A DNA stretch of 64,000 nucleotides from an uncultured beta proteobacterium (GCA_963711235.1 CAVQDI010000002.1:206395-270394), one strand, 5' to 3'; positions 40,189 to 61,719 are shown, counted from the stretch's first letter. A program made the numbers and translations. The notes: generated from the sequence alone by a model not told the origin.

Positions 40189-41955
40189 GTGGTTGATGTT
40201 CTTACAACTCGTGAACGCGGAGCACTGACTGGTATGAGGCGTAGCGTCACGACGACCTCGCCGCCCCGCCAACTCAAGGCGGTTACCGTTGCTGCGCTCC
40301 GTACATTGGCGACCCGCTTCGGCGGCGCGGACGATGCCCGTCGCTTCGCGCTGCTGCGCGCGGCCGCAGCTGCAGCGCTTGGCGATATGAAGGTACTGCT
40401 CGCCTATCACGATGTGCTGCTCTTCCTTCTGGCATATCCAGCCACGGCGGCGATGCGTTCACTCGCGGCTCTCGAGCTCACCCGGGTCGCTGCGGTGGCG
40501 CGATACATCGACGCGCACGGTCCCGCGCGGGCACGCGCTGGGCTGCGTGGCAGCGGCATCGCGTGGTCGGCAATCAGCATCGCCTACGGCTATCCGATCG
40601 CCCGTTGGCTGGTGTCCCGCTTTCCGAGATGTGTCGATATCGATTCGTTCGGTGAGCGCGGCGCGCTCCTCGCGGAATGGTTGCGCCCTGGTTTACCTCC
40701 GGCCGAATTCGAGCTCCTCGCGTCCGGCGAGGAATCGCCGGAGGCGCTGCTCGACGCCGGCACGACAGGATGGCGCGGCAGTCGGCTTTCCTGGCTGGTC
40801 GCGCAATTCGAGCGCCTGCCATGTGATCCCGCGTTGCGCGAGTCGCTCTACGACAGCCTCGAACTGTTCGTCTTGCTGAACCCGCGCGACGCGCCGATCT
40901 CACGCACGTTCGTGCGCGGATTGCCTGCCCAAGCGTTCTATCATCGCGGCCCGCTCTTGCGCAGCGTCGATGCCGATCGGCTGATCGCGGCTGCCCTGCC
41001 TCGGGCACGCCGCCTTGGGCGTGGCGCCTGCCAGCATCTGGTCGATGCCGGACGTGGCGTTCTGGCGGTACTCGGTCGTGAGACCGATCCGATCGCCCAT
41101 GCTGACGTTGCGCGGACGCGCCACTACCGCCTTGGGCGCGGTGTCGACATAGCGCTGTATTCGGCTATCCCTGCGCAACGCAGCGCACTCGATTCGCATA
41201 TCGGCTACGTGTTGTTCAAGAACAGTGTCCCGATCGGCTACGGCGGCGGTTGGCCGTTCCTCGGCACCTGCAAGATCGGCATCAACATCTTTGCGCCGTT
41301 TCGAAACGGCGAGTCCGCGTTTCTGATGGCCTCCGTCCTGCGCGTGTACGCCCAGCTGTTCGCGGTGGAGCGGTTTGTCGTGGAACCCTATCAATTCGGC
41401 GCCGGCAACCGTGAGGGCCTTGAATCAGGCGCCTTCTGGTTCTACTTTCGTTTGGGCTTCCGGCCCGTCAAACCCGCGCTGCGCGTGGTCGCGCTGGAGG
41501 AATTCGAGCGAATGAAGCGAAATCCGGGGTACCGCACGCCGTTGTCTGTCCTGCGGCGCTTCGCCCGCTCCGATCTCGAGCGGCCCGTAGTCTGTGGCGC
41601 TCGCGACGCCTGCGATCCGGCTGCGCTGAGTCAGGCGGTGACGACGTGGATAGCGTCACGGTTCCATGGGCGGCGCGATCGCGCGGAAACGGCAGCGCTG
41701 CGTCGCGTGGCTGCGGCGCTGGGGTTAGCGGATGCCGGTGCCTGGAACGACGACGAGCGCAGGGCGTTGCGCGCCATGGCGCCGGTCCTTGCTCAGATCA
41801 AAGACCTTCGCGCGTGGGCTGCGCCGGACAAGCGCCGCCTGGTCGCGCTGATCCGCGCTAAGGGCGGCAACGAGTACCGCCATTTCGCGTTGATGGCGGA
41901 TTTCGCGCGTCTGCGCAACGGATTGAACGTAGTCGCCGAAAACTCAGCGCCGTAA
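40189..41955 (+). CDS. Large hypothetical protein with a GNAT-like core in its second half
   Basis: Long uninterrupted ORF with coding-like composition. GYVLFKNSVPIGYGGGWPF...FVVEPYQFGAGNREGLESGAFWFYFRLGFRP resembles an acetyltransferase-fold segment. Start uncertain (GTG at 40189 or ATG at 40234). Confidence 0.55.
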   Translation: MVDVLTTRERGALTGMRRSVTTTSPPRQLKAVTVAALRTLATRFGGADDARRFALLRAAAAAALGDMKVLLAYHDVLLFLLAYPATAAMRSLAALELTRVAAVARYIDAHGPARARAGLRGSGIAWSAISIAYGYPIARWLVSRFPRCVDIDSFGERGALLAEWLRPGLPPAEFELLASGEESPEALLDAGTTGWRGSRLSWLVAQFERLPCDPALRESLYDSLELFVLLNPRDAPISRTFVRGLPAQAFYHRGPLLRSVDADRLIAAALPRARRLGRGACQHLVDAGRGVLAVLGRETDPIAHADVARTRHYRLGRGVDIALYSAIPAQRSALDSHIGYVLFKNSVPIGYGGGWPFLGTCKIGINIFAPFRNGESAFLMASVLRVYAQLFAVERFVVEPYQFGAGNREGLESGAFWFYFRLGFRPVKPALRVVALEEFERMKRNPGYRTPLSVLRRFARSDLERPVVCGARDACDPAALSQAVTTWIASRFHGRRDRAETAALRRVAAALGLADAGAWNDDERRALRAMAPVLAQIKDLRAWAAPDKRRLVALIRAKGGNEYRHFALMADFARLRNGLNVVAENSAP

Positions 41956-44063: not shown

Positions 44064-44107
44064 GTCCGGAGCCCTGGCGTCGCGGATGCATGTGGGAAGG
44101 GACAGCT

Positions 44108-44695
44108 ATGCAGTCACTTCGCATCATCAAAGACGAACATCGCTCGCTGGCAGCGGTCTTGCACGGCATGCTTTACTTGGTTCACGAGATCCGCGACCGG
44201 GGCGCCAAGCCAAATTTTGCCTTGCTTGGGGCGATGATCTATTACATCGACACGGTTCCGGAACGATTCCACCACCCCAAGGAGGATCAGTACCTGTTTT
44301 GGCTATTGCGCATTCGCCACCCGGATGCGGCGCCGCTGCTTGACCGGCTGAAGTCGGAGCACCAGGCGGGCGCCGAAAGGATACGCACGCTGGAGCAGGC
44401 CTTGATGCGGTACCAGCACGGCGGCGCGGCCGAATTCTTCAACTTCATGGCGGCGGTGGAAGCCTATGCAGCCTTCCACTGGGATCACATGCAAACCGAG
44501 GAAAATGACGTCCTGCCGCTGGCAGAGAAGCATCTCACCGTCGGCGATTGGCAAGCGATCGATGCGGCATTTCTCGGTCACACCGATCCGATGGTCGGCG
44601 TCGACGCAGGAGTCAAGTACGACACGCTGTTCCGTCGCATCGTCAACCTGGCGCCGCCGCCGATCGGCGTGGGACCCGCGAGCGAGCGCGAGTGA
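44108..44695 (+). CDS. Hemerythrin-like domain protein
   Basis: ATG at 44108. IKDEHRSLAAVLHG, FHHPKEDQYLF, and HMQTEENDVLPLAEK. Confidence 0.75.
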   Translation: MQSLRIIKDEHRSLAAVLHGMLYLVHEIRDRGAKPNFALLGAMIYYIDTVPERFHHPKEDQYLFWLLRIRHPDAAPLLDRLKSEHQAGAERIRTLEQALMRYQHGGAAEFFNFMAAVEAYAAFHWDHMQTEENDVLPLAEKHLTVGDWQAIDAAFLGHTDPMVGVDAGVKYDTLFRRIVNLAPPPIGVGPASERE

Positions 44696-47114: not shown

Positions 47115-47444
47115 TCAGTAACCCGACGACCCCTGAAATGCCACCGGCCTGTCCGGCACCGGAAAACGGTAGTAGAGATCGTTCAGATAGCGGGTGACAG
47201 CGAGGATGTCCTCGTCGCTCCAGGCGAGGCCCGTGTTCATCTGCCATCGAAATACTTGCTTCCTGAGACTTGCCCAGTCTGTCGCCAGCCTCTTGTCGCG
47301 CCAATGCACCTGTGCGCTATGGCAACCGATGCAATGGGTGGAATAGAGGAGCTCGCCGCGGGAGCTGTCCGGCGCTGGCTGGGCCGCAACCGCAATTGCG
47401 CCAGCGGTGCAGGCGGCCATTAGCCCCAATGTCAGTCGTCGCAT
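47115..47444 (-). CDS. Small monohaem c-type cytochrome, secreted
   Basis: Signal peptide MRRLTLGLMAACTAGAIAVAA. A single CIGCH. Last gene of the minus-strand string. Confidence 0.75.
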   Translation of the reverse strand: MRRLTLGLMAACTAGAIAVAAQPAPDSSRGELLYSTHCIGCHSAQVHWRDKRLATDWASLRKQVFRWQMNTGLAWSDEDILAVTRYLNDLYYRFPVPDRPVAFQGSSGY

Positions 47445-47543
47445 CGCAACCGATCAGCGGCCTCCCGGGCCCGCGACAGCTTCGCTACGACGGGTAAGTA
47501 TTCCATCACGGCAGCTTGAGTATTGGGGTTTCTGGCGCGGGGG

Positions 47544-48506
47544 TCAACCGTCGTTCTTAACCATCGGCCATGTCTCATTGGCGTGCTTCAGCAGCGCAGG
47601 ATTGCTGCGGCAGCGGGTGATGAATTCGCGCACCTCCGGCGCATGCCAGGCGTCGCGATAGGCCCGCCACGCATCCTCGAGCGAATCGCGGCGCAGGTCG
47701 GCGGCGGCGAAAGGGAGCGCATTGAGCAGCTTGACCTTGCCGTTGGGCACGACCAGGAGCATCGCCTGCGGTCGCTCGAGCCGCGTTTCCATCTCCGCAA
47801 GAATGTCCCAAGGATAGATCAAAAGGGCCATTCCGGGGCCGATCGACGCGGCGCGTTCTCTCAGCGCGGTAACCGCGGCGCGCCACTCCTCGCTGCTGCA
47901 TGCAATGCGCTGCCAGGCGCCAGCGGCGCGGCCGATGCGCATGAGCGGGCCGGTCACGAATGCGCTGCAGCCGAGCGTTGCCGCCAGATCGAACGCGGCG
48001 ACAATCTCGTGCAGATTAAAGCGGGTGGGAACGAACACCAATTGCGGTGCAAGACCGCGCGCGACCAATCGCTCGATGGCGGCGACCGCCGCGGCGAAGC
48101 TCGATCCCGGTCGCACGCGTTCATGCGTCGCCGCCGTCGCTCCATCGACCGAAATCTGGATGCATTCGACGCCGAGCGCCGAGAGCCGATCGGCCGCGGA
48201 ATCGTCGATGTGGCTGCCGTCGGTCTCGATCTTGAGCGCGATGCCGGCCGCGCCGAGCAGCTCCAGCAGATCCCAGCAATGCGGTACACCCAGCGGCTCG
48301 CCACCACCGAAGGCAACGTAGGCGACGCCGAACGCCGCGATGCGACGCGCAAGGTCGATCGCTTCGTCACGGGGAAGCTCATCGTGCCATGCCTTATCGG
48401 GACCGGACTCCTCGCAGCAGGTGATGCAGCGCGCGGCGCAGCGGTTGGTCAGCTGCCAGGCAAGAAAAAGGGGCGCCCGGTAGTCTTCGACCGAGCGCCC
48501 CGGCAT
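47544..48506 (-). CDS. Radical SAM enzyme, PqqE-like core, paralogue 3
   Basis: LFLAWQLTNRCAARCITCC (CxxxCxxC), GGGEP, and IETDG. The C-terminal part is homologous to a SPASM/twitch region (VVPNGKVKLLNALPFAAADLRRDSLEDAW) but has no auxiliary-cluster cysteines. Confidence 0.85.
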   Translation of the reverse strand: MPGRSVEDYRAPLFLAWQLTNRCAARCITCCEESGPDKAWHDELPRDEAIDLARRIAAFGVAYVAFGGGEPLGVPHCWDLLELLGAAGIALKIETDGSHIDDSAADRLSALGVECIQISVDGATAATHERVRPGSSFAAAVAAIERLVARGLAPQLVFVPTRFNLHEIVAAFDLAATLGCSAFVTGPLMRIGRAAGAWQRIACSSEEWRAAVTALRERAASIGPGMALLIYPWDILAEMETRLERPQAMLLVVPNGKVKLLNALPFAAADLRRDSLEDAWRAYRDAWHAPEVREFITRCRSNPALLKHANETWPMVKNDG

Positions 48507-48525
48507 TGCGGAAGTTTTAGGTATT

Positions 48526-48681
48526 TCAGGTGAAGCGGATGTACGGCTGAGCCATCACCTGCTCGGAAATGTCCTCGAGCTTGGGCGTTTCCCACGCGAG
48601 CTTTTGCGCCGGCTGCACCGTATCGGTCTTGCGTTCATCGCCGGTCTTAGCGGCTTCGATCGTCAGGTTCATCTCGCTCAT
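48526..48681 (-). CDS. 51-aa PqqA-like candidate precursor peptide (not in the ORF track)
   Basis: ATG at 48681 with GGAGGG 4-9 nt upstream; stop TGA at 48526-48528. Lies 10 nt after the stop of the upstream rSAM gene and 19 nt before the start of the next. Translation: MSEMNLTIEAAKTGDERKTDTVQPAQKLAWETPKLEDISEQVMAQPYIRFT. Confidence 0.6.
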   Translation of the reverse strand: MSEMNLTIEAAKTGDERKTDTVQPAQKLAWETPKLEDISEQVMAQPYIRFT

Positions 48682-48691
48682 TTTCCCTCCG

Positions 48692-49654
48692 TCAGGTCAC
48701 ACCCGGGACCACGGACAACAACTGCCAACTGTTGGCTTGCGCGTGACGCGAGGGGTCGGCGACCGCGCGCTCTGCTGCCATTAGCACTGTATCACTTCGC
48801 CAGGCGTTGCGGTAGGCCTCCCAGGCCTCCATTAGTGTATGGCGGCGCAAGTCAGCACAGATCTGCGGCAGCGCGGCGGCGACCTTGACCCAGCCGTTGG
48901 GTAGCACGAGCAGGGTTGCCGGCGGCGTTTGGAGACTGCCGCGCAGGCCTTCCTCGAGATCGAACGGAAGATGGCATAACTCCAATTGACCCTCCAGGAG
49001 CCGGCCCATGCGTCGCAACAGGCGGCGAAACGCCCGGTACTGCGCATCGGTGGGCTCGAGCTTGTCCCACAGCCGTGCGGCAGTGCCGATGCGCATAAGC
49101 CGCCCGGTATTGACGCGGAAGGCACCAAGCGCCCGTGCCCGCTCGATGACCGGCCCAGCCTCGTGAATGTTGAGCCGGGTCGGCGCAAAGGTGATCTCGA
49201 GCGGCAGCCCGGCCGCGCGAGCGGCACGGCAGGCCGCATGGGCTTTGGCGAGCGACGCGCCTGGCCGCTGGCCCTCGTAGACCTGCTGCGTGTCGCCGTC
49301 GAGGCTGATCTGCATCGAGCGGATGGGCAGGCGGGCGAGCCGAGCGGCGAGTTCGGCATCGAAGCGCTGCCCGTTGGTCTCGATCTTGAGCTGAACGCCC
49401 GCCCGCCCGAGTGCCTCGGCCAAGGCAACGAAGTGAGGCACCACCAAAGGTTCACCGCCACACAGCATCACATAGGGCACTTCGTTGCGGGCAATCTCAT
49501 CGGCCAGCCGCAGCGCCTCGCCGACGTCGAGTTCATCCCGCAGCCGCTTGCCTGGCGCCGACTCGGTACAGCAATGCAGGCAGCACAGGTCGCAGTCCCG
49601 CGTGATTTGCCACGAGACGAACAGCGGCGCGCATAGCTGATCGATTCGGTTCAT
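48692..49654 (-). CDS. Radical SAM enzyme, PqqE-like core, paralogue 2
   Basis: LFVSWQITRDCDLCCLHCC, CGGEP, and IETNG. C-terminal LVLPNGWVKVAAALPQICADLRRHTLMEAW. The start ATG overlaps the stop of the prenyltransferase gene (ATGA). Confidence 0.85.
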   Translation of the reverse strand: MNRIDQLCAPLFVSWQITRDCDLCCLHCCTESAPGKRLRDELDVGEALRLADEIARNEVPYVMLCGGEPLVVPHFVALAEALGRAGVQLKIETNGQRFDAELAARLARLPIRSMQISLDGDTQQVYEGQRPGASLAKAHAACRAARAAGLPLEITFAPTRLNIHEAGPVIERARALGAFRVNTGRLMRIGTAARLWDKLEPTDAQYRAFRRLLRRMGRLLEGQLELCHLPFDLEEGLRGSLQTPPATLLVLPNGWVKVAAALPQICADLRRHTLMEAWEAYRNAWRSDTVLMAAERAVADPSRHAQANSWQLLSVVPGVT

Positions 49655-50601
49655 AAGCGCAACGGGTGCAACGCATGCACCAGGACGCCGGCCGTAAAAA
49701 GCCCGACGCAGACAAGATAGCAGCCGACGATGCTGCGCATCGCGGGAACGAAGGCACGCGGCGTTTCGTAGCTGTGCAGCGCAGAGCGGCCGCTGGCCAC
49801 GAGCAGCGGTAGTGCCAGCAAGCCGGCTAGGCAGCTAACGGGAAAGATGCCGCTTGCTACACCGGCCAGCACGACCAGCAACCCGGCTGCCGCAAGGCCG
49901 ACATACAGCCAAACCGCGCGCCGGCGGCCGAGCCGTACGACAAGATTGCGCTTGCCGACCAATCGATCCTGGTGGTAATCCGGAATCGCGTTGACGACCG
50001 CGAGTGCCATGATCAAGCATCCCGGCACCAACGACGCGAGGAATGCACCCCAAGACAGGGCCTGGGTATGCAGGTAGAGACTGCCCAGGACCAGCCAGGG
50101 CCCGTACGACAGGGCGATGACCAGCTCACCCAGACCGCGATAGGCCCAACGTATCGGAGGCGCCACATAGAAGATCGCCGCCATGCCACCTAGCAGCGCG
50201 AAGGCAAGGATCGGCCAACCGCCGCGAACGGCCAGGTAAACGCCAATGGCCAGAGCGCCCGCAAAGGCTACTATCCCGAGCAAGAGTACCCCGCCAGACA
50301 TCGGCGGCAGGTCTGCAGGATTGAACACGCGGTCGGTCCCCATGCGTGAATCGAAATACTCGTTGAACGCCTCGACGCCGATGACCGCAAGGACCACGCC
50401 GCCGAATCCGCTCCAGAAGACAGCTGCGTCGAACGCACCCTCGGTGCCGTAGGCCCACGCCGCTCCGAGCAGGTAGGGCAAGACGCCGGCATAGAGGAAA
50501 AAACGATAGCGCACCATGCTGCAGACGGTGAGCAGCCGGCGCAGCGCCGACCGGTCGACGGCGGCCCGGTCGGCGGACACAGGGGTCAGAGATAGACCCA
50601 T
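49651..50601 (-). CDS. UbiA/MenA-family integral-membrane aromatic prenyltransferase
   Basis: About 8-9 TM helices. First Asp-rich motif NEYFDSRMGTD and second motif DYHQDRLVGKRNLVVRLG (MenA-like N-x3-D-x3-G-x-D / D-x3-D-x2-GK). Start is either the ATG at 50601 (16-nt overlap with the upstream gene) or the ATG at 50517. Confidence 0.8.
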   Translation of the reverse strand: MGLSLTPVSADRAAVDRSALRRLLTVCSMVRYRFFLYAGVLPYLLGAAWAYGTEGAFDAAVFWSGFGGVVLAVIGVEAFNEYFDSRMGTDRVFNPADLPPMSGGVLLLGIVAFAGALAIGVYLAVRGGWPILAFALLGGMAAIFYVAPPIRWAYRGLGELVIALSYGPWLVLGSLYLHTQALSWGAFLASLVPGCLIMALAVVNAIPDYHQDRLVGKRNLVVRLGRRRAVWLYVGLAAAGLLVVLAGVASGIFPVSCLAGLLALPLLVASGRSALHSYETPRAFVPAMRSIVGCYLVCVGLFTAGVLVHALHPLRL

Positions 50602-51587
50602 TGGTGCAGCATCCTGGTCTGTCCCGGATCGGCGGCCAGATCGTTGACGAATTGCGCCACGCGCGGATCGTGCCACGCGCGCCGGAAGTTCGCCCAGATT
50701 TCCGGCAACGACTGGTGGCGAAAATCTCCGCACACGAACGGCAGGGCGTTGATGAGCTTGACCAGTCCGTTGGGGAGCACGATCAGCAGCGCAGCCGGGT
50801 GCTGGAGGCGGTAGCGCAGCTCCTCGAGCAGGCCGGCCTCGTGAAAATAGACGCGCATCCGGCCGCGGTACTCCTCGGTCTTTTCGCGCAGGATGTCGAA
50901 GAAAGCATCGTATCGCTCGTCCGACAACGCAAGGTGCCGCCATGCTTTCACGGCATTGCCGGTGAACATCGTACGGCCGGTATAGAAGCTGTACGCGCCC
51001 AGCCCGTAGGCCAGATCGACGACTGCGCCGATTTCATGGGCGTTAAATCGAGCCGGCGAAAAGTTGATTTCGACGGGGACGCCTGCATCGCGCAGGTTGC
51101 GAAGCCCCTCGACCGTCCGGTCGAAATTTCCGCGTACGCGCATGCGGTTAAAAGTCTGGCCCGACGCACCGTCGAGACTCACCTGCACCGCTTTGACGCC
51201 GAGCGCTTTCATGCGCTCACAGTTTTCGGCGGTCAGATAGTGGCCGTTCGTCTCGACCTTGAGCTGCGCACCGCGCGTGCAGACGTACTCCACCATTTTG
51301 AAGAACAGGGGGTGAAGCATCGGTTCTCCGCCAGAAAACGACAGGTAGGGGACTTCGTGGTCCATCAGCTGATCGAGGACGGCGAACATCTGCGCCTCGT
51401 CGAGTTCGTCGCGGAACGCCTTGCCGGGACCGCTCTCCTCGATGCAATGCAGGCAAGCGAGGTTGCACTCATTGGTGATCTGCCAGGCGACGTAGAGCGG
51501 CGCGGCGAGGTCCTCCGAGCAGGCGTAGGTCGAGGTCGTCGCCGGGATTGCGAACTCGGGTCCGGTATCCGTTGCTAATATTGTCAC
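50586..51587 (-). CDS. Radical SAM enzyme, PqqE-like core, paralogue 1
   Basis: GTG at 51587 with GAGGG upstream. LYVAWQITNECNLACLHC, SGGEP, and VETNG. C-terminal LIVLPNGLVKLINALPFVCGDFRHQSLPEIW. Confidence 0.85.
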   Translation of the reverse strand: MTILATDTGPEFAIPATTSTYACSEDLAAPLYVAWQITNECNLACLHCIEESGPGKAFRDELDEAQMFAVLDQLMDHEVPYLSFSGGEPMLHPLFFKMVEYVCTRGAQLKVETNGHYLTAENCERMKALGVKAVQVSLDGASGQTFNRMRVRGNFDRTVEGLRNLRDAGVPVEINFSPARFNAHEIGAVVDLAYGLGAYSFYTGRTMFTGNAVKAWRHLALSDERYDAFFDILREKTEEYRGRMRVYFHEAGLLEELRYRLQHPAALLIVLPNGLVKLINALPFVCGDFRHQSLPEIWANFRRAWHDPRVAQFVNDLAADPGQTRMLHQWVYL

Positions 51588-51591
51588 GCCC

Positions 51592-51843
51592 TCAACCCTC
51601 GACGAGGCTTCTCTGCCGCAGCTCCGCGATGAACGCGACGACTTCGCGCTCGATCACGTCGGTACTGTCGTTAAAGCGCTCCTTCAGTCGCGTGGCGATC
51701 TCGTGCTCGTCGTGGCCTGCTTCGATCTCGCGCACGACCGCCATGGCCGTCGGATTGAGCGTAAAGACCTTCTCCGAGCGCGTCTCGAAGAGGACGCCGC
51801 CAAATTTCTCCTCGCGTAACTTGACGAATTTTGCGAGCCGCAT
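51592..51843 (-). CDS. PqqD-family peptide-binding (RRE-type) chaperone
   Basis: FGGVLFETRSEKVFTLNPTAMAVVREIEAGHDEHEIATRLKERFNDSTDVIEREVVAFIAELRQRSLV fits the PqqD pattern. Start is the ATG at 51843, or possibly 51897. Confidence 0.7.
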   Translation of the reverse strand: MRLAKFVKLREEKFGGVLFETRSEKVFTLNPTAMAVVREIEAGHDEHEIATRLKERFNDSTDVIEREVVAFIAELRQRSLVEG

Positions 51844-51940
51844 ACTGGTTGGGCCGAAAGAACTGCAGTTTATCTGCAAAGTGGGTCGGAGTAGCATAGC
51901 CGCGGAAAAAGCGGCCGTTCGTCGATTCGACCCACCGGAC

Positions 51941-53236
51941 CTAGGGCGACGGCCCCATCATACCCATTTTCTGTGGCAGCCAGGTCGACAGCGTCGGCCA
52001 GTAGGTGACGATGACCAGGAACACGAGCATGGTGACGAGCCACGGGATGACCGCTCTCGTCAACCGGGTGATGCCAACGCGCGAAATCCCCGAAGCCACG
52101 TACAGGTTCAGGCCGACCGGCGGATGGCAAAGCCCGACCTCCATGTTGACATCGATCAGGATGCCGAGATGCACCGGATTGATCCCGAGCGTCATCGCCG
52201 CGGGGTAAAGAATCGGCGCCATGATGAGGATGACGGAAGACGGGTCCATGAAATTGCCGGCGATGAGCAACAGCAGGTTGGCCAGCAACAGGAACCCCAC
52301 CCAGCCCAGATCCTTGGCAATAATCCAGTCCGCCAGGGCATGCGGAATGTTCTCGTTGGTCAGTATGAAGGAGAACAGCGCCGCATTAGTGATGATATAG
52401 AGCAGCATCGCGCTCATGTTCGCTGAAGTCAGCAGCACCTTGCGCATGTCCCGAAGCGGCATGGCCTTATAGATGAAGACCGACACGAAGAAAGAGTAGA
52501 CTGCGGCCATCGCGGCCGCTTCGGTGGCCGTGAACAGCCCCGAGTAGATGCCGCCGATGATAATGACGACCAACATCAGGCCCCAGACACTCTCGCGAAA
52601 TAATTTCCAGCGAGTAACCCAGCTTTCCCTTGGCATCCGCGGGTAACCGCGCTTCTTCGCGATGTACCAGGTGACAAAACAAAGCATCGTGGTCAGCATG
52701 ATCCCCGGCAGGAGTCCTGCGACGAATAGCGCGCCGATCGACGTATTGGTGGCGATTGCGTAGATGACCTTGGGGATCGACGGCAGCATGAGAATGCCGA
52801 GCGAACCTGCTACCGTGATCACCGCTGCGCCGAATTCCATCGGGAAGCCGCGCTTGACCATCTCCGGCAGGACGATGGATCCGATGGCCACGACCGTGGC
52901 GACACTCGAACCGCAAACCAGCGCAAACATGGCGCAGGCCACGATGCCTGCCAGCGCGAGTCCGCCGTGCCAATGGCCGACCATGGAGGCGGCGAAATTG
53001 ATCATCCGCCGCGCCACGCCACCGTGGGTAAGGAAAGTGCCCGCCAGGATGAAGAACGGGATCGCCATGATCTCGAACCGCTCGATGCCGGTAAACAGCT
53101 TCAACGCGACCGACTCGATCGGCACCTGGGTCATGGTGAACACGAAAGTCAACACCGTGAGCCCCAGCGCGATGGAGATGGGCATGCCGGTGAGCATGAG
53201 CGCGATCAACAGGCCAAAAATGATGGCGGACGTCAT
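51941..53236 (-). CDS. dctM: TRAP C4-dicarboxylate transporter large permease
   Basis: 431 aa, about 12 TM helices. MPISIALGLT..., IPFFILAGTFLTHGGVARRMI, and PPVGLNLYVASGI. Confidence 0.9.
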   Translation of the reverse strand: MTSAIIFGLLIALMLTGMPISIALGLTVLTFVFTMTQVPIESVALKLFTGIERFEIMAIPFFILAGTFLTHGGVARRMINFAASMVGHWHGGLALAGIVACAMFALVCGSSVATVVAIGSIVLPEMVKRGFPMEFGAAVITVAGSLGILMLPSIPKVIYAIATNTSIGALFVAGLLPGIMLTTMLCFVTWYIAKKRGYPRMPRESWVTRWKLFRESVWGLMLVVIIIGGIYSGLFTATEAAAMAAVYSFFVSVFIYKAMPLRDMRKVLLTSANMSAMLLYIITNAALFSFILTNENIPHALADWIIAKDLGWVGFLLLANLLLLIAGNFMDPSSVILIMAPILYPAAMTLGINPVHLGILIDVNMEVGLCHPPVGLNLYVASGISRVGITRLTRAVIPWLVTMLVFLVIVTYWPTLSTWLPQKMGMMGPSP

Positions 53237-53239
53237 CGC

Positions 53240-53860
53240 TCAACGCTTCTCGGAAGGCGTTGCGGGGTGAAGGTTGTCTTCCACCGCCATGCCGATCGGC
53301 AGGATGTCCTTGTCGGAGATTCTCTCGACGCCCGCCACGTCGGTGGGATCGTGATGGGGCAACTCACCGGTGCGGCGGAAGTTCCACGCGACTTGAAGAA
53401 AGCGAAAACACATCAATCCCGACCCACAGGGAATGGCAAGGTAGACCAGCCACATGGGCAACTCCATGTCGGGCGAGGTCTGGTTGGTGTGGGCCAGCTG
53501 CCAGACGAAGCTGGCACCGAACGCGGCCACCACGCCTGTAAACAGAGCTCCTGCGAACAAACCGAAGAAGATGCACTTTCGGCGGGCGCTCTCGGGCAGG
53601 TGATTGATCACCACGTCCACACCGACGTGGACGCCAGTGCGCACGCCGTAAGCGGCGCCGAACTTGGCCATCCACACGAACATGTAGATGCATGCTTCCT
53701 GCGCCCACGAGAGATTGAGCGCGAGCAGCCAATCCTGCACCACGGGAATCGGCAAACCCGCCGCGTAGCGGTGGATGACAGCCACGAAGATGATCAACGT
53801 CGCACCACCCATGAGCAGGGCGATTAGCCACTCCTCCAGATGGTCAAGGAGCTTCAGCAT
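53240..53860 (-). CDS. dctQ: TRAP transporter small permease
   Basis: ATG at 53860. Four TM helices. LEEWLIALLMGGATLIIFVAVIHRY. Stop lies 3 nt before the dctM start. Confidence 0.85.
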   Translation of the reverse strand: MLKLLDHLEEWLIALLMGGATLIIFVAVIHRYAAGLPIPVVQDWLLALNLSWAQEACIYMFVWMAKFGAAYGVRTGVHVGVDVVINHLPESARRKCIFFGLFAGALFTGVVAAFGASFVWQLAHTNQTSPDMELPMWLVYLAIPCGSGLMCFRFLQVAWNFRRTGELPHHDPTDVAGVERISDKDILPIGMAVEDNLHPATPSEKR

Positions 53861-53899
53861 GCCGCCTGTCCCGGGTTTGTCGACTGGTCTTGTCCCACG

Positions 53900-53927
53900 C
53901 AAAAAAAGCCGCTGCGGGCCGCAGCGG
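53900..53927 (-). terminator. Intra-operon rho-independent terminator/attenuator after dctP
   Basis: On the minus strand: GCCGCTGC-GGCCC-GCAGCGGC (8-bp GC stem) followed by TTTTTTT. Confidence 0.5.
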
Positions 53928-53983
53928 CGTTGGTTGCGTCCAGCCGCACCCGTGCCTCCCGCGCGTGGCTCGGTCAGGGCGCC

Positions 53984-54991
53984 TCAGGGCTTGAAGCCGG
54001 TTTCCTTGTAAACAGACTGGATCAGATCTTTGCCGATACGGATTTCCTGGTCACGATGTACCGGCACCAGCGCTTTTTTCCACGTGGCTTTCTGTTCGGG
54101 CGTGAGGGTGATAATCTCGGTCTTACCGGAAGCGTTTACCGCCGCGAGCGCCTTGTCGTTCTCTTCCTTGGCGATGTCGTTAGCGAATTTGGTCGCATCT
54201 TTCATTGCGCCTTCGAGCGTTGCGCGGGTATCGGCAGGCAATCCTTCCCAGAACTTCTTGTTGACGATCACCGCGTATTCGAGCACACCGTGATCGGTCA
54301 TCGTTAGATGCTTCTGCACTTCGTTCATCTTCTGCGTGTAAAAGTTCGATGGCGGATTCTCCGTTCCATCGACGACACCGGTTTGCAGCGCCTGATAGAC
54401 CTCGGAGAATGCCATCACCTGCGGAATTCCCCCCAGAGCGCGAATTTCGGAGTCGAGTACTTTCGACGATTGGATGCGCATCTTCAAACCCTTGACGTCG
54501 CCGGGAAGACGCAGCGGTTTGTTCGCACTGAAGTCCTTGAAGCCGTTGTCCCAATACGCAAGACCGACGATCCCCTTGGATTCAAGCTTCTGGAACAGGG
54601 CTTTACCTACCGGGCCTTCCGTGACCTTGTGTAGCTCCGCAACGTCATCGAAGAGGTAAGGCAGATCAAATACCTCAAATTCGCGTGCACCCAACGGCCC
54701 GAATTTCGCCACCGAGGGTGCCAGCATCTGTACCGCGCCAAGCTGTAGCGCATCGACTTCCTCGCCATCCTTGTAGAGCGTGCTGTTGGGGTACACCTCG
54801 ACCTTGACCCGGCCCTTGGTGCGCTCTTCCGCGAGTTTCTTGAAATACTCGGCACCCTTGCCTTTCGGCGTATCGACGGCAACGACGTGGCTGAACTTGA
54901 TGATGATCGGCTGCTGTGCGGGTGCCCCGAACGCAATCGCTAAACTAGCCAGCGCGACAATTAGTGATGCAAACTTCGTTGCGACCTTCAT
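53984..54991 (-). CDS. dctP: TRAP C4-dicarboxylate-binding periplasmic protein
   Basis: ATG at 54991 with GGAGGAG upstream. Signal peptide. IIKFSHVVAVDTPKGKGAEYFKKLAEERTKGRVKVEVYPNSTLY...LQLGAVQMLAPSVAKF closely follows canonical DctP. Confidence 0.9.
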   Translation of the reverse strand: MKVATKFASLIVALASLAIAFGAPAQQPIIIKFSHVVAVDTPKGKGAEYFKKLAEERTKGRVKVEVYPNSTLYKDGEEVDALQLGAVQMLAPSVAKFGPLGAREFEVFDLPYLFDDVAELHKVTEGPVGKALFQKLESKGIVGLAYWDNGFKDFSANKPLRLPGDVKGLKMRIQSSKVLDSEIRALGGIPQVMAFSEVYQALQTGVVDGTENPPSNFYTQKMNEVQKHLTMTDHGVLEYAVIVNKKFWEGLPADTRATLEGAMKDATKFANDIAKEENDKALAAVNASGKTEIITLTPEQKATWKKALVPVHRDQEIRIGKDLIQSVYKETGFKP

Positions 54992-55022
54992 GTCTCCTCC
55001 ACATAGGGTGCAAAAAGACCTG

Positions 55023-55796
55023 CTATTTCCAGCCAATGCTCACCATCTTGCGACGCATGAAGGCGATCTGCGTTGCGAGCGGCAACTCCTTCGGGCAGAC
55101 ATCGTGGCAAGCGAGCAAGGACATGCAACCGAAAACGCCGCTGTCGTCGCCGACGAGTTCATAGAAATCTGCGTCGCTGCGCGTGTCGCGCGGATCGAGC
55201 CGGAAGCGGGCGATCTTGTTCAGCCCGACCGCGCCGACAAAATCGTCGCGCATGCGCGCGGTGCCGCAACCGGCGACACAACACCCGCATTCGATGCAAC
55301 GATCAAGCTCGTAGATCTTCTGCGCCAGTTCCGGCTCCATGCGTTCCTCGAGCCGGGAAAGGTCCACCTCTTTCTGCCGCGTGTGCACCCAGGCCTGCAG
55401 CCGCTCGCTCATCGCTCGCATCCACTTGCCGGTGTTCACCGAAAGGTCGGCGATCAATTCGAAGACCGGCAGGGGCGCCAGCGTGATCTCCGGCGCCAGG
55501 TTCTGCGTCAGCGTACGGCAGGCGAGCCCTGGGCGCCCATTGATCAGCATGCCGCAGCTGCCGCATATCCCGGCGCGACAGACGAAGTCAAATTGCAGGG
55601 ACGCGTCCTGCTTTTCGCGGATTTCGTTGAGCGCGATGAACAGCGTCATCCCCTCTGCCTCTTCGAGTTCGTAGGCCTGCATGCGCGGAACACTGCCTCG
55701 CTCCTGCGGGTTGTAGCGCAGGACGCTGATCCGCACCTTGCGGTGCGGTCGTTCAGGCGGCACCGGCGGGGATGGCATCGCGGTGGCTTCGGTCAT
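55023..55796 (-). CDS. frdB: Fumarate reductase / succinate dehydrogenase iron-sulfur subunit
   Basis: Cys clusters [32 protein letters not shown] and CHDVCP. The start overlaps the frdA stop (ATGA). Confidence 0.9.
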
Positions 55797-57811
55797 GTCG
55801 CGCCCGATCGTTGCTGGCCTGCGGGGGACGGTGCCAGCGGCTCGTCGATGCGCTCGTTGGGTCCGCGGAAGCGTTCGGGCATTAGCGCCGCGTACGGCAT
55901 CAGGGCCTCCTGTATGACCGTGCGGCTGGCGCTGGCAAGCCGGGTCCTGATCGCCTCCACCTCCGCGGCGCGACGCGCCGTGTCGGGATGATCGACGTAA
56001 TCCTTCGCGCCGTACCCGCGCCACCCCGGCGGCAGCTCCATCTGCATCACGTCGAGCGATTCGCGCGCAAGCGTCGGCAGCACGTCGTCGGCGTTCTTCC
56101 ACGTTGCCAGCGTGCGATTCAGCCATTCGGCGTCGTTGCGCCGCGGATAGTCGTGGCGGAAATGCGCGCCCCGGCTCTCGGTCCGGGTCAGCGCGCCGTA
56201 GGCCACGCACAGCGCCAGTCGCAACATCTTCTGCACCCGGTAGGCGGAGACGAGCTCGGGATTCGGGCCACTTGCGGTCGAGCGCAGACCGATCTTCTGA
56301 CTGCGCTGCAGCAGCGACTGCAGCTCCTCGACTGCGGCGGCGAGCTCCTCGCCAGCGCGGAAGATGCCGACCTTGGCCGTCATGATCTCCTGCATTCGTA
56401 CCCGCAGCGCGTTGGCTTCTTCCCCGCCCCGGTTACCGGCGAGCGCGTCGAGCTTGGCCTGCTCGTGTTCCAGGAACTCGCGGATCAGGCCCGTGGAGAA
56501 TTGCAGGTTGCCCTCGGGACGAGCACAGAAGTCGGCTATGAACTCACCCACGATCATGCCGCCGACGACGGTTTCCGCGACCGAGTTTCCTCCCAGGCGG
56601 TTAAAGCCGTGCAGGTCCCAGCAGGCGGCTTCGCCGGCTGCGTAGAGTCCCTTGAGCGTCGGGCTGCCACCGGTGTGGTCGGTCCGGATCCCACCCATCG
56701 TGTAATGCTGTGCCGGCCGCACCGGTATCCAATCCTTTATCGGGTCGATGCCAAGGAAATAGTGGCAGATCTCCTTCACTTCGCGCAGGTTGCTGTCGAT
56801 GTGTTTGGCCCCGAGCAGGGTAATGTCGAGCCAGAGATGCTCGCCGAAGCGCGACTTCACGCCCGCGCCTCGCCGGATGTGCTCTTCCATGCGCCGGGAT
56901 ACCACGTCGCGCGACGCGAGTTCCTTTTTCTCCGGCTCGTAGTCGGGCATGAAGCGCTTTCCCGCAGCGTCGCGCAGCAACCCACCGTCCCCACGGCAAC
57001 CTTCGGTGACCAGAATGCACGCAGGAAAGATCGCCGTCGGGTGAAACTGGATGGCCTCCATGTTGGCCACCGCCGCCACGCCTGTCTCCAGCGCCAGCGC
57101 CGTGCCGGTACCCTCGCAGATGACGGCGTTGGTCGTCGCACGATAAAGACGGCCCGCGCCGCCGCTCGCAATGGCGGTCGCCTTGGAGACGTAGGCGACC
57201 AGTTCCCCGGTCACGAGGTTACGGACCACTGCGCCGTAGCAGCGAGATCCGTCATGAATCAGCGCCAGGGCCTCCATGCGCTCGTGCACGGTGATCGCGT
57301 TGGCGATTGCCTGGTCGCTCATCGCGTACAGCATGGCGTGGCCCGTGCCGTCGGAAACGTAGCAGGCGCGCCATTTCTTGGTGCCACCGAAGTCGCGTTG
57401 CATCACCAGTCCGTGCGCTTCGTCGCGCTCGGTGATCGTGACCTTCTGGCCGTTGATGATCACCTGCCGGTCACCTTTCTGCACGCGGCTCCACGGCACG
57501 CCCCAGGCGGCAAGCTCGCGCACGGCCTTGGGCGCCGTGTCGACGAACATGCGCACGACGCGCTGATCGGCGCCCCAGTCGCTGCCGCGCACAGTGTCTT
57601 CGAAATGCACGTCCTCGTTGTCACCCATCGCTTTGACGACGTTGCCCAGGCTCGCTTGCATGCCGCCCTGCGCCGCTGCAGAGTGCGATCGCTTGGGCGG
57701 GACGAGCGATAGGATGATGACGTCCTGGCCACGGCGTTTGGCGCCGATGCCGATCCGCAGCCCCGCGAGGCCACCGCCGATCACCAGCACGTCGGTGTAG
57801 ATCACGTTCAT
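55793..57811 (-). CDS. frdA: Fumarate reductase / succinate dehydrogenase flavoprotein subunit
   Basis: [22 protein letters not shown] (covalent-FAD His region), QFHPT, RGEGG-like CRGDGG, and HYTMGG. 672 aa. Confidence 0.9.
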
Positions 57812-58614
57812 CGGGGGCCTCCCACCGCCCCCCCGGCGGCGGGCTGGGGTGACGGTGCCTGCCGCGCAGCCGGCACGTAATGCTCGCCATAGTGGTCACG
57901 GTGCTCGATGCCGATCTTGATATAGGCCGCCAGAGTCGCCACGCCCAGGACCAGGAAAAAGCCCGTCAGCGCCCATTTGGCGAGCTTGAGCCGACGCCGC
58001 AGCGCATTCGCATCGCCGCCTCCGAACCAACCCCATTTTACGGCCAGGCGGTACAGGCCAATCCCGCCGTGCACCTCGACGGTCAGCAGCAGCACAATGT
58101 ACAGCGGCCAGAAGTGTTCGCTCCAGACCCGATCGGCCGATTCGAACGGCCCGATGCGGTCGGGCCGGGTAAGCATGATGTAGAGGTGGACCGAGGCCAG
58201 AAAGAACAGGGCGAAGCCGGTGACGACCTGCCAAAACCAAAGCGTTGTGTCTTCGTGCCGCAGCATCCGCATGTGACCGCGAAAGGTGCTGAACTGACGG
58301 TAGTTAATCGGGAATTTGCGCACCGCCAGCAGGGCGTGCGCTACCACCAGCGCGATGACCAGCGCGACCACGGTCGAGACAATTCCCGGATAGGACCGAC
58401 CGAAGACGAAATAGCCTTCGAAGAATTTCGTAACCATCCACATAACGTCCTTGCCAAGCAGGATCGACGAGACGAAGGCCATATGCGCCCACATGAAAAG
58501 CGCCAGCAGGAGACCCGAGGCGCTCTGCGCCAGGTCAAGTCTCGCCGGCCAATGGCTGCGCCGGGCAGGGTCGGTCAGACCGACGCCGGCGATCAGCGGG
58601 CCGCTATGTTCCAT
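57808..58614 (-). CDS. frdC: Fumarate reductase dihaem cytochrome b membrane subunit (single-subunit, Wolinella/B-type anchor)
   Basis: ATG at 58614 with AAGGAAG upstream. Five TM helices with conserved His residues. Stop overlaps the frdA start (ATGA). Confidence 0.8.
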
Positions 58615-58870: not shown

Positions 58871-59449
58871 ATGTTCCAGATCCGGATTCACGGTCGTGGC
58901 GGTCAGGGCGTGGTATCGGGCGCCGAAATGCTATCCGTCGCGGCATTTCTCGAAGGGCATTATGCCCAGGCGTTTCCCAGCTTCGGGTCGGAGCGCATGG
59001 GGGCGCCCGTAATGGCCTTCTGCCGCATCGACGACAAGGAGATCCGCTTGCGCGAACCGGTGCTGGAACCCGAGGCGCTGATCGTGCAGGACCCGACATT
59101 GCTGCATCAGGTCGACCTGTTCAGCGGCCTCCAGGCGCGTGGCTACATCCTGATCAACTCGACGCGCAGCTTCGAAGAGCTCGGGCTCGGCGCGTTCGCG
59201 CGGGGCGTCGGGCGTTATCGCCTGTGCTCGCTCCCGGCCACCGAGCTGGCACTCAAGCACGTGGGCCGCTCGGTGCCGAACGCGGCGCTTCTCGGCGGTT
59301 TTGCCGCGGTCACCGGGCGGATCGCGCTGGCGTCGGTCATCGCCGCCATCCGCCAGAAGTTTCCTGCCGCGGTGGCGGAGAAGAACGCCGCCGCGGCCAC
59401 GGAAGCGTTCGAGTTTGCCGCTAAAGCGAAGGACACGATCGATGCTTAA
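58871..59449 (+). CDS. 2-oxoacid:ferredoxin oxidoreductase gamma subunit
   Basis: MFQIRIHGRGGQGVVSGAEMLSVAAF...FPSFGSERMGAPV. Confidence 0.85.
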   Translation: MFQIRIHGRGGQGVVSGAEMLSVAAFLEGHYAQAFPSFGSERMGAPVMAFCRIDDKEIRLREPVLEPEALIVQDPTLLHQVDLFSGLQARGYILINSTRSFEELGLGAFARGVGRYRLCSLPATELALKHVGRSVPNAALLGGFAAVTGRIALASVIAAIRQKFPAAVAEKNAAAATEAFEFAAKAKDTIDA

Positions 59450-60695
59450 GCAGACGGAAGGGTCGCGCGCGGTTGCTGAGGCCATCGCGCTCTGCCGGCC
59501 GCAGGTGATCTGCGCTTATCCCATCACGCCACAGACGCATATCGTCGAGGCGCTCGGCGAGATGGTCAAGACGGAAGAGCTGGCCAAGTGTGAGTTCATC
59601 AACGTCGAGTCCGAATTTGCCGCACTATCGGTTGCCATTGGCGCTTCGGCGGCGGGGGTGCGCACTTATACCGCGACCAGCAGCCAAGGCCTGCTGTTCA
59701 TGGCCGAGGCCGTGTACAACGCCGCCGGACTCGGGCTCCCGATCGTGATGACCATCGGCAATCGGGCCATCGGGGCGCCGATCAATATCTGGAATGATCA
59801 CTCCGATAGCATGTCGATGCGCGATGCCGGCTGGATCCAACTCTACGCCGAGACCAACCAGGAAGCGCTCGATCTGCACATTCAGGCGTTCCGCCTCGCC
59901 GAGGCACTGTCCTGTCCGGTGATGGTGTGCATGGACGGCTTCATCCTCACCCATGCCTATGACCGCGTGGACTTGCCGACGCAGCAGGAAGTCGATGCGT
60001 TCCTGCCGCCTTACGAGCCGCGGCAAATGCTTGACCCGGCCGATCCGGTGAGCATCGGCGCGATGGTCGGGCCAGAAGCATTCACCGAAGTGCGCTACCT
60101 GTCGCATCACAAGCAGCTGCGCGCGCTGGGCCTGATTCCGGAGCTGGCCGCCGCATTCCAAAAACAGTTCGGCCGCGAGTCGGGTGGGCTCATCCGGCCC
60201 TACCGCAGCGAAGACGCCGAGACGATCGTGGTCGCGCTCGGCTCGGTCAACGGCACCGTGCAGGAAGTCGTCGATGAAATGCGTGCGGACGGTTCGCGCA
60301 TCGGTTCGGTTTCCATTTGTTCCTTCCGTCCATTTCCGCTCGCTGTCTTGCGTGACGCATTGCAGCACGCCAAGCGCGTGGTCGTGCTGGAAAAGTGTCT
60401 GGCAGTGGGCCTGGGCGGCATTGTTTCCGACGGGGTACGCAAGTCCTTGTCCGGCATCGTACTCAACGGCTACACCGTCATCGCCGGCCTTGGCGGGCGC
60501 GCAATCACGCGAGCGTCACTGAGGCGGCTGTTCGAAGACGCCGAGCGGGACGAGCTCGAACAGGTCACTTTTTTGGACTTGAACGCGGACGTGGTCAGCC
60601 ACGAGCTGGAACGCGAGAGCAAGATGCGCCGCTCCGGACCCACTGCGGAAGCGATCCTGCGCCGCATCGGCACGGTTGCGTCACGGATCGGTTGA
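59442..60695 (+). CDS. 2-oxoacid:ferredoxin oxidoreductase alpha subunit
   Basis: GSRAVAEAIALCRPQVICAYPITPQTHIVE...ESEFAALSVAIGASAAGVRTYTATSSQGL. The start overlaps the gamma subunit stop. Confidence 0.9.
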   Translation: MLKQTEGSRAVAEAIALCRPQVICAYPITPQTHIVEALGEMVKTEELAKCEFINVESEFAALSVAIGASAAGVRTYTATSSQGLLFMAEAVYNAAGLGLPIVMTIGNRAIGAPINIWNDHSDSMSMRDAGWIQLYAETNQEALDLHIQAFRLAEALSCPVMVCMDGFILTHAYDRVDLPTQQEVDAFLPPYEPRQMLDPADPVSIGAMVGPEAFTEVRYLSHHKQLRALGLIPELAAAFQKQFGRESGGLIRPYRSEDAETIVVALGSVNGTVQEVVDEMRADGSRIGSVSICSFRPFPLAVLRDALQHAKRVVVLEKCLAVGLGGIVSDGVRKSLSGIVLNGYTVIAGLGGRAITRASLRRLFEDAERDELEQVTFLDLNADVVSHELERESKMRRSGPTAEAILRRIGTVASRIG

Positions 60696-61707: not shown

Positions 61708-61719
61708 CAGCATCGATCC

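Follow-up and report, generated by a model that had tools for sequence, protein, structure and literature searches.

Gene organisation of the cluster

In the current analysis we describe a cluster of genes on the minus strand of a 64,000-nucleotide stretch of DNA from an uncultured beta proteobacterium (GCA_963711235.1, CAVQDI010000002.1:206395-270394). The whole stretch is referred to as the window, and coordinates are window positions except where a numbered locus from another genome is named. Six genes spanning 47544-51843 encode, in the order of transcription, a PqqD-family peptide chaperone, a radical S-adenosylmethionine (SAM) enzyme (rSAM1), a membrane polyprenyltransferase of the UbiA family, a second radical-SAM enzyme (rSAM2), a precursor peptide and a third radical-SAM enzyme (rSAM3). 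The cluster is probably a new, unnamed and widespread family within the peptide-derived pathways, which resemble those of peptides made on the ribosome and modified after translation (RiPPs).

An initial annotation, made from the sequence alone, had described seven tightly packed minus-strand genes at this place. The open reading frames (ORFs) and their coordinates agree with our own, which also confirm the reported gaps of -16 to +19 nt; from one gene to the next across the six genes these measure +4, -16, -4 (ATGA at 49651-49654), +10 and +19 nt. The seventh gene, which encodes a small CxxCH protein scoring 21.0 bits with PF00034 (Pfam cut-off 21.3), is separated from rSAM3 by 99 nt and adjoins the cluster in just 3 of 80 loci; it is therefore placed outside the conserved system, and the conserved unit comprises six genes. 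The UbiA reading frame is open over 49651-50943 and its start has been placed at 50601 (MGLSL), the position that was also chosen when a metagenomic contig of identical sequence was annotated independently.

No exporter, protease or immunity gene was found within the cluster by ORF listing, by clustering of the flanks or in the loci inspected. A scan of the cluster with Rfam revealed no known RNA family, and a promoter scan gave no score above the expectation from shuffled sequence. The features are collected in Table 1.

Table 1. Features of the cluster, of the adjoining array and of linked synthase genes in other loci
Feature	Position	Strand	Evidence or remark
PqqD-family peptide chaperone (RiPP recognition element, RRE), 83 aa	51592-51843	-	PF05402; alternative ORF start 51897
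rSAM1, radical-SAM enzyme, orthologue of the single radical-SAM enzyme of the four-gene module	50586-51587	-	PF04055
MenA/UBIAD1-like UbiA-family membrane polyprenyltransferase, 316 aa	49651-50601	-	PF01040
rSAM2, paralogous radical-SAM enzyme, add-on of the six-gene version	48692-49654	-	PF04055
Precursor peptide, 51 aa	48526-48681	-	conservation pattern, codon constraint
Conserved tail of precursor peptide, 22 residues	48529-48594	-	alignment
Invariant core AQPYIRFT of precursor peptide	48529-48552	-	alignment
GC-rich hairpin and T-run, terminator- or attenuator-like	48460-48501	-	folding, covariation
rSAM3, paralogous radical-SAM enzyme, add-on of the six-gene version	47544-48506	-	PF04055
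Small CxxCH protein, putative monohaem cytochrome c, 109 aa	47115-47444	-	borderline Pfam matches
dctM	51941-53236	-	TIGR00786 above cut-off
dctQ	53240-53902	-	no family match; named by its place between dctP and dctM and by 22 loci that have homologous ORFs upstream of the cluster
dctP	53984-55036	-	TIGR00787 above cut-off
frdB, fumarate reductase Fe-S subunit	about 55023-55796	-	NF010071 above cut-off
frdA, fumarate reductase flavoprotein	55793-57811	-	NF006383 above cut-off
frdC, fumarate reductase cytochrome b	57808-58614	-	NF010072 above cut-off
Polyprenyl-diphosphate synthase genes	L074 6552-7496; L091 2537-3514; L093 7368-7983		PF00348

The precursor peptide

The peptide consists of a hypervariable N-terminal leader followed by a near-invariant tail, W-E-T-P-K-L-E-D-V-S-E-Q-V-M-A-Q-P-Y-I-R-F-T. 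When 76 distinct DNA versions are compared in pairs, the codons of the last eight residues (AQPYIRFT) show 8537 differences that are synonymous and 0 that are non-synonymous, and a Shine-Dalgarno sequence, GGAGG, is situated upstream of the ATG. The ORF is a genuine gene under strong purifying selection at the protein level, and it shows the classic pattern of a RiPP or cofactor precursor, with a variable leader and an invariant core.

Homologues of the peptide fall into 549 clusters at 90% identity, every one annotated as 'hypothetical', and a filter-free hidden Markov model (HMM) search of 1.84 billion proteins gave 97 clusters at 50% identity. The divergent representatives retain M-A-Q-P-Y-I-R-F-T, with one group having M-A-Q-P-F-I-R-F-T, and these nine residues of the core hardly vary between three classes of Proteobacteria, Elusimicrobia, Armatimonadetes, Omnitrophica and an archaeon of the Nitrososphaerales.

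The initial annotation had called the peptide PqqA-like. The PqqA models PF08042 and TIGR02107, which recognise the PqqA of K. pneumoniae used as a positive control (36.7 and 44.8 bits), matched neither the window peptide nor three variants even at E<=10, and no NCBIfam model was matched by the window peptide or by the cytochrome. Lys-rich variants such as WKKPEFEDVSLKVMAQPYIRFT score 14-15 bits with TIGR02107 (E=0.013-0.035; cut-off 20 bits), the match being limited to model positions 1-11. A profile-profile comparison with hhalign aligns AWETPKLEDV with MWKKPAFIDL of PqqA (P=0.011); of the PqqA sequences in this alignment, one was validated by the K. pneumoniae control. We conclude that the recognition half of the peptide is weakly PqqA-like and its core different. 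The earlier likeness is thus retained for the leader half, with its motif W-x-x-P-x-[LF]-x-D-[VL], and is lost for the core and at the cut-offs of the PqqA models.

The PqqD-like chaperone and the radical-SAM enzymes

The chaperone matches PF05402 with E=7.6e-14 (52 bits, Pfam cut-off 23.4). With the PQQ-specific NCBIfam model TIGR03859 it scores 37.2 bits against a cut-off of 46, and all PqqD-type equivalog models of NCBIfam remain below cut-off. The corresponding protein of Elusimicrobia carries an N-terminal extension of about 65 residues.

All three radical-SAM genes match PF04055 (E=1e-20 to 2e-22), and the CX3CX2C motif is 100% conserved in rSAM1, rSAM2 and rSAM3. Neither a match to PF13186 (SPASM) nor a 7-Cys motif was found in any of the three, so that, of the profiles which the initial annotation had proposed for checking, PF05402, PF04055 and the UbiA family PF01040 are matched while PF13186 and the PqqA family PF08042 are not. 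Additional conserved cysteines number one in rSAM1, three in rSAM3 and five in rSAM2 (positions 29, 65, 142, 227 and 266), none of them in a CX2CX5CX3C arrangement. A C-terminal segment of the enzymes, 'LPNGxVKxxxALP', looks like a cysteine-less remnant of the SPASM/twitch hairpin.

The best 120 homologues of rSAM1 share 76-92% identity with it, and rSAM2 is about 40% identical to rSAM1. The AlphaFold2 model of rSAM1 (pLDDT 83.6) finds its best folds in SkfB, PqqE, BlsE and SuiB; the closest solved structure is that of SkfB (sequence E=2e-23; Foldseek E=2.6e-17, TM 0.69). Most of these nearest folds are peptide maturases, and the search by sequence likewise leads to SkfB, PqqE and SuiB. Motif and fold place the enzymes in the SPASM/twitch peptide-maturase branch of the radical-SAM superfamily, and the auxiliary-cluster cysteines expected of that branch are absent.

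Nearly all NCBIfam matches of the three enzymes are limited to the N-terminal core (about residues 13-230). The mycofactocin enzyme MftC (TIGR03962) is the best or second-best match for all three (111-122 bits against a cut-off of 265), and PqqE (TIGR02109) scores 79, 64 and 56 bits against 381. The haem-modifying AhbD and NirJ-type models, named in the initial annotation as the identification that would overturn its reading, give 79-124 bits against 500 and about 73-121 bits against 500-650, respectively. These matches, restricted to the radical-SAM core and at a quarter of the cut-off or less, do not bear that identification out.

The prenyltransferase and linked polyprenyl-diphosphate synthases

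The UbiA-family protein matches PF01040 with E=4e-25 (88.9 bits, cut-off 34.2). Its best NCBIfam matches are the dihydroxynaphthoate (DHNA) polyprenyltransferase models NF004751 (106 against 264 bits) and TIGR00751 (68 against 102 bits), and UBIAD1 (8djk) is its sole sequence match in the Protein Data Bank (PDB); the two Asp-rich motifs coincide in the alignment. Across 75 orthologues these motifs, NEYFDxRxGTD and IPDxHQDxLVGKRNL, show a conservation of 95% or more. The gene is always adjacent to rSAM1, and usually overlaps it, in the loci inspected.

Genes for polyprenyl-diphosphate synthases (PF00348) are translationally coupled to the cluster in five Elusimicrobia loci, L074 among them, in L091 of an unassigned lineage and in L093 of Omnitrophica. 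The best NCBIfam matches of these synthases include solanesyl-, heptaprenyl- and octaprenyl-diphosphate synthases. According to the chain-length rule, small residues before the first DDxxD mark synthases of long chains, such as those of quinone tails. The coupled enzymes are assigned to the long-chain type because the residues at this place are small (HNASLLHDD, HTATLVHDD). Prenylation of the product, predicted from the cluster itself, is thus independently supported by cluster-coupled long-chain synthases in three lineages.

Distribution and gene-order variants

A scan of one genome per GTDB species yielded 162 relatives of rSAM1, and the gene order in the best 80 loci was mapped by tblastn. 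The order PqqD, rSAM1, UbiA, rSAM2, peptide, rSAM3 is found in 69 of the 80, most of the remaining loci being interrupted by contig ends. Conservation of the small ORF together with the gene set in other genomes, which the initial annotation had set as a test, is thereby demonstrated. These loci belong to Beta-, Gamma- and Alphaproteobacteria and to Elusimicrobia; they carry labels such as Casimicrobiaceae, Usitatibacter, Burkholderiales and 'Caldimonas' metagenome-assembled genomes (MAGs), Steroidobacteraceae and further Gammaproteobacteria, Acidocella, Acidiphilium, Acidisphaera and Elusimicrobia. One of them is the complete genome CP019169 of the cultured Betaproteobacteria bacterium GR16-43 (L048). 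The identity of rSAM1 across the phyla represented is 67-87%.

Shorter versions of the cluster have also been identified. A locus of Steroidobacteraceae (L057, 8957-10232) has the peptide gene directly after UbiA and is genuinely without rSAM2, which makes it a version with two radical-SAM genes. By way of Phe-variant peptides and distant UbiA homologues we have reached a four-gene form, comprised of peptide, PqqD, one radical-SAM enzyme and UbiA, in Armatimonadetes (L089), Omnitrophica (L093) and one Nitrososphaerales archaeon. The gene for a long-chain polyprenyl-diphosphate synthase is often next to this form. The archaeal unit (L086), with the precursor peptide MMKGKKEWKKPVLVDVTGKVMAQPFIRFT, lies on its contig between archaeal ribosomal protein genes; that of L083 is self-contained with unrelated flanking genes, and that of L094 adjoins Rnf/Nqr genes. 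The six-gene order is seen again in L092, and the PqqD/RRE gene is present throughout the loci inspected.

Versions with one, two and three radical-SAM genes all being present, the three enzymes that the initial annotation had taken as the distinguishing feature do not define the system. In a neighbour-joining tree (no bootstrap) the single enzymes cluster with rSAM1, and rSAM2 and rSAM3 form separate clades. The tree indicates that the four-gene module with a single radical-SAM enzyme is the ancestral form; since the single enzymes group with rSAM1, the version in the window is read as an expansion, the added block being made up of rSAM2, the peptide gene and rSAM3.

In a collection of 5.8 billion proteins all members found are annotated as 'hypothetical protein', 'radical SAM protein' or 'prenyltransferase'. 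None of the seven proteins scores above the cut-off of an NCBIfam model, and full-text literature searches, including one for the core QPYIRFT, found no description of the cluster, in agreement with the earlier statement that the architecture belongs to no named system.

An RNA hairpin following the peptide gene

A hairpin with a GC-rich stem of 12 bp and a subsequent T-run lies directly 3' of the stop codon of the peptide gene and overlaps the first codons of rSAM3. It recurs at the same position in nearly all six-gene loci (L002-L080); in the Elusimicrobia the stem is retained with its register shifted by one base. In most of these loci the hairpin is more stable than synonymous recodings of the sequence (median z -1.8), and for 35 of 71 the difference passes the 5% threshold. 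For the Gly codon within the stem, 64 of 74 loci use GGG, which accounts for 13% of the Gly codons elsewhere in rSAM3; this unusual choice helps to preserve the hairpin. In register 81% of the cells are paired, as against 41-58% in shifted registers, and compensatory changes occur at the stem pairs 22-45, 25-42 and 27-40. The hairpin looks like an attenuator or a transcript-stabilising element beside the precursor gene.

Respiratory genes around the cluster

The cluster forms the downstream end of a co-directional frdCAB-dctPQM array (51941-58614, minus strand). Wolinella-type fumarate reductases normally use menaquinol, so that an enzyme of this type beside the cluster deserves attention, the organism being a betaproteobacterium.

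Within 8 kb of the cluster, in counts uncorrected for shared ancestry, NapC/NirT genes occur in 27 of the 80 loci, an MtrA-like decahaem cytochrome in 23, FrdA in 21, MtrB/PioB in 15 and a [NiFe] hydrogenase in 2. These neighbours sit on either side of the cluster at variable distances. A conduit for extracellular electron transfer, composed of a tetrahaem cytochrome (NapC/NirT), a porin (MtrB/PioB) and a decahaem cytochrome (MtrA-like), is encoded beside the cluster in many loci, namely in L048 (12276-15981) and also in L038, L062, L066 and others; in L091 the cluster has DoxD beside it. Fumarate reductase, NapC/NirT, Mtr-type and hydrogenase modules exchange electrons with membrane quinones, and the neighbourhood suggests a role in anaerobic electron transport. 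The hemN, CRP/FNR-family regulator, hemerythrin and 2-oxoacid:ferredoxin oxidoreductase genes of the window are in keeping with this suggestion.

Comparison with characterised pathways

The combination of a small peptide, a PqqD partner and radical-SAM enzymes had been compared with the pathways of pyrroloquinoline quinone (PQQ) and mycofactocin, with a MenA-like prenyltransferase embedded in the operon, and the domain matches and the conserved gene order uphold this description. As in RiPP pathways generally, a precursor with leader and core is encoded together with an RRE and a radical-SAM enzyme, as read from the genes.

The cluster shares with PQQ biosynthesis a precursor of similar size, a stand-alone PqqD-family chaperone and a radical-SAM enzyme with a PqqE-like fold. 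Both peptides count 22 residues from the conserved Trp to the C-terminus, have in common the leader motif W-x-x-P-x-[FL]-x-D-[LV], and contain, four residues from the end, an aromatic residue followed by Ile. However, the Glu of the E-x3-Y motif of PqqA, which PqqE cross-links, is Met or Thr here, and Phe may stand in place of the Tyr. The proteins fall short of the equivalog models for PqqA and PqqE, and the radical-SAM enzymes are without SPASM cysteines. PqqB, PqqC and PqqF are not found among the six cluster genes, nor PqqB and PqqC among the recurrent neighbours or in the contexts inspected, and the PQQ pathways have no known counterpart of the membrane polyprenyltransferase.

Mycofactocin exemplifies the same logic of a cofactor derived from a peptide, with chemistry at the C-terminal core. 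The radical-SAM enzymes match MftC and the chaperone matches MftB, but the scores are below cut-off (for MftB, TIGR03967, 24.6 against 33 bits), the cluster has no MftD, MftE or MftF, and no MftA peptide model is matched. The core of mycofactocin ends in Val-Tyr, whereas that of the cluster is AQP[Y/F]IRFT; auxiliary-cluster cysteines are absent and a UbiA prenyltransferase is present.

SkfB, the maturase of the sporulation killing factor and the nearest solved structure by sequence and by fold, is a peptide-modifying, twitch-domain radical-SAM enzyme that carries an N-terminal RRE and an auxiliary cluster. It makes a thioether from Cys to a C-alpha, whereas Cys is absent from the core of the present peptide and the RRE forms a protein by itself. 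The UbiA-family protein resembles MenA and UBIAD1 in its best family matches, in both Asp-rich motifs and in the linkage of the cluster to long-chain polyprenyl-diphosphate synthases. It differs in scoring under every MenA equivalog cut-off and in the location of its gene, which lies inside a peptide-maturation operon with no DHNA-forming genes adjacent. The futalosine pathway combines radical-SAM chemistry (MqnE/MqnC) with UbiA-family prenyl transfer to produce a membrane quinone without O2; its substrates, in contrast, are small molecules derived from chorismate, and neither a peptide nor PqqD takes part. No Mqn model is found among the top 25 NCBIfam matches of each radical-SAM enzyme.

Proposed pathway and alternative explanations

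The cluster is probably the expanded six-gene form of a widespread and undescribed RiPP-type pathway that has a four-gene core and yields a prenylated product. We are rather more confident of its two central elements, namely that the peptide is the substrate and that the product is prenylated; that the product serves as a quinone-like respiratory carrier is a tentative suggestion. It is from the gene content, order and coupling, the conservation, the catalytic motifs, the fold class and the polyprenyl-synthase linkage established above that we infer the chemical steps, the prenyl acceptor, the trimming of the peptide and the physiological role.

In the proposed pathway the ribosome would make a peptide of 29-53 residues, whose leader motif, W-x-[TK]-P-x-[LMI]-x-[DE]-V, resembling the N-terminal half of PqqA, would be bound by the PqqD protein. 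The chaperone would present the invariant C-terminal core A-Q-P-[Y/F]-I-R-F-T to rSAM1 for a radical modification, in which rSAM2 and rSAM3 would also act in the organism of the window. The modification would most likely be a C-C cross-link or another C-H functionalisation at or near the aromatic residues, as exemplified by SkfB, PqqE and SuiB. The UbiA protein in the membrane would then use polyprenyl diphosphate to attach a long polyprenyl chain to the modified peptide or to a fragment thereof, and the product would thereby be anchored to the membrane. Kept in the cell, it could play a conserved, housekeeping-type role, most plausibly that of a redox cofactor or electron carrier in anaerobic or microaerobic respiration. 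A product resembling a cofactor rather than an antibiotic is suggested by three features: the core does not vary between Bacteria and Archaea, the cluster has neither an exporter nor a protease nor an immunity gene, and it is linked to polyprenyl synthases.

A number of observations weigh against this proposal. The radical-SAM enzymes lack the auxiliary clusters that are typical of peptide cross-linking SPASM enzymes. Since the cluster encodes no peptidase, a small head group could be set free only by a protease encoded elsewhere. Phe replaces Tyr in the core of several lineages, the archaeal one included, and both a quinone derived from the phenol and a direct electrophilic prenylation of the ring are disfavoured for this reason; the initial annotation had derived a quinone-like head group from Tyr, and this detail is weakened accordingly. 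The UbiA superfamily also forms esters and ethers, as in chlorophyll synthase and digeranylgeranylglyceryl phosphate (DGGGP) synthase, so the acceptor could be the C-terminal Thr or carboxylate in place of an aromatic ring; by analogy with these enzymes, an ester or ether link at the C-terminal Thr is equally conceivable as attachment to the ring. The clustering of flanking ORFs did not find a universal partner (dehydrogenase, protease or exporter), the neighbourhood counts may reflect shared ancestry, and some contexts are not respiratory, such as the pentose-phosphate genes and superoxide dismutase (SOD) of L083 and the ribosomal proteins of L086. The cluster is also not needed for thaumarchaeal menaquinone, because futalosine genes are listed for Thaumarchaeota by Zhi et al. 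2014 (PMC3914697); an interpretation of the cluster as the missing menaquinone pathway of these archaea was dropped on the same ground. As to the prenylated, membrane-bound redox cofactor that the initial annotation had envisaged, the prenylation is strengthened by the coupled synthases, and the redox role is a possibility for which the neighbourhood gives suggestive support.

Among the alternatives the one that survives best, although unlikely, is a product in which the peptide, still whole, bears a polyprenyl group on its C-terminal Thr or carboxylate or on the Arg and has a structural, regulatory or assembly role in the membrane, without a redox function. The lack of a peptidase in the cluster, a conservation that covers 22 residues and so extends beyond the short core, the interchange of Tyr and Phe, which shows that the phenol can be dispensed with, and the established capacity of UbiA-family enzymes to form esters and ethers would all be accounted for. 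Such a product fits less well with a UbiA protein that is nearest to the aromatic prenyltransferases MenA and UBIAD1, or with the linkage to quinone-type long-chain synthases and quinone-dependent respiratory modules, and it leaves the radical-SAM steps without an obvious purpose.

It is improbable that the cluster encodes an alternative O2-independent route to a quinone already known, such as menaquinone or a compound like demethylmenaquinone, whose ring the radical-SAM enzymes would build in the manner of MqnE and MqnC with the small ORF as a scaffold or accessory. The MenA-like prenyltransferase, the linked long-chain synthases and the Wolinella-type fumarate reductase beside the cluster in a betaproteobacterium are in keeping with such a route. 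Against these stand the lack of any likeness to Men or Mqn enzymes beyond the radical-SAM core, the absence of a chorismate-handling enzyme, the PqqD partner and invariant peptide, which imply peptide chemistry, and the futalosine genes that Thaumarchaeota already have.

An ordinary secondary-metabolite RiPP, that is a secreted or antimicrobial prenylated peptide, has the typical architecture of peptide, RRE and radical-SAM enzyme in its favour and is nevertheless improbable. The cores of bioactive RiPPs usually diversify, whereas the present core is the same in Bacteria and Archaea without a single non-synonymous change; an exporter, a leader peptidase and an immunity gene are all lacking, and a long polyprenyl tail would hold the product in the producer. 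The view that the radical-SAM enzymes are NirJ/AhbC/AhbD-type modifiers of haem or tetrapyrroles acting with a prenyltransferase like haem O synthase, to which the rank of AhbD and NirJ among the top NCBIfam matches (E about 1e-36 to 1e-20) and the nearby hemN and cytochrome genes might point, is largely refuted by scores of 74-124 bits against cut-offs of 500-650, nearly all confined to the N-terminal core, by equal or better matches to MftC, SkfB and PqqE, by the PqqD gene and conserved peptide that are always present, by a UbiA protein that matches MenA models and not those of haem O synthase, and by the fact that hemN and cytochrome c are not conserved neighbours.

Returning to the RiPP-type pathway with a prenylated product, few cofactors derive from ribosomal peptides, and the product could, as a speculation that we regard as rather unlikely, be a redox cofactor of a third kind derived from a ribosomal peptide, next to PQQ and mycofactocin, and the first of these to be membrane-bound: a quinone-like carrier, synthesised independently of O2, whose head group the radical-SAM enzymes would cut out of the AQP[Y/F]IRFT tail and which would bear a long polyprenyl chain. 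If this were true, the carrier would serve low-potential modules such as the Wolinella-type fumarate reductase, the NapC/NirT and Mtr-like conduits, Rnf/Nqr and DoxD, and either great age or lateral spread would account for its occurrence in both archaea and bacteria. An electron carrier of this kind would be a new lipid-soluble cofactor for microbial bioenergetics and might explain the occurrence of menaquinol-type fumarate reductase and of Mtr/NapC conduits in ubiquinone-type betaproteobacteria under anoxia. Apart from the nature of the product, the conservation of the core points to a cellular function that annotation has overlooked. No report of a UbiA-family membrane polyprenyltransferase in a RiPP pathway was found, and such an enzyme would define a new reaction with a peptide as its substrate. 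By their small size, the minimal four-gene versions lend themselves to direct heterologous reconstitution.

Other features of the window

The window also carries hemN, a regulator of the CRP/FNR family (33528-34295), two hemerythrins and DsbB. FNR-box-like sites (TTGAT-N4-ATCAA with one mismatch) are located at 34548, 38931, 42562 and 46229, four being found where one is expected. The site at 42562 lies 35 nt upstream of hemN. Control of the operon by FNR was considered and rejected, no FNR-like site being found before the PqqD gene.

The hemerythrin-like paralogues (44090-44695 and 37210-37779) share 34% identity and have relatives near the cluster in 10 loci. The region 59301-64000 on the plus strand, divergent from frdCAB, encodes a 2-oxoacid:ferredoxin oxidoreductase (POR_N/PFOR_II) followed by an Fe-S/FAD oxidoreductase like the small subunit of glutamate synthase and by a further ORF. 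Two long ORFs at 34630-36129 (499 aa) and 40189-41955 (588 aa) have a good coding signal in the GC content of third codon positions (GC3) and no Pfam match at E<=1e-5. A tRNA gene at 9700-9774 on the plus strand is immediately followed by a gene of the phage integrase family at 9856-10989 on the minus strand, and this pair may represent the edge of an integrated element.

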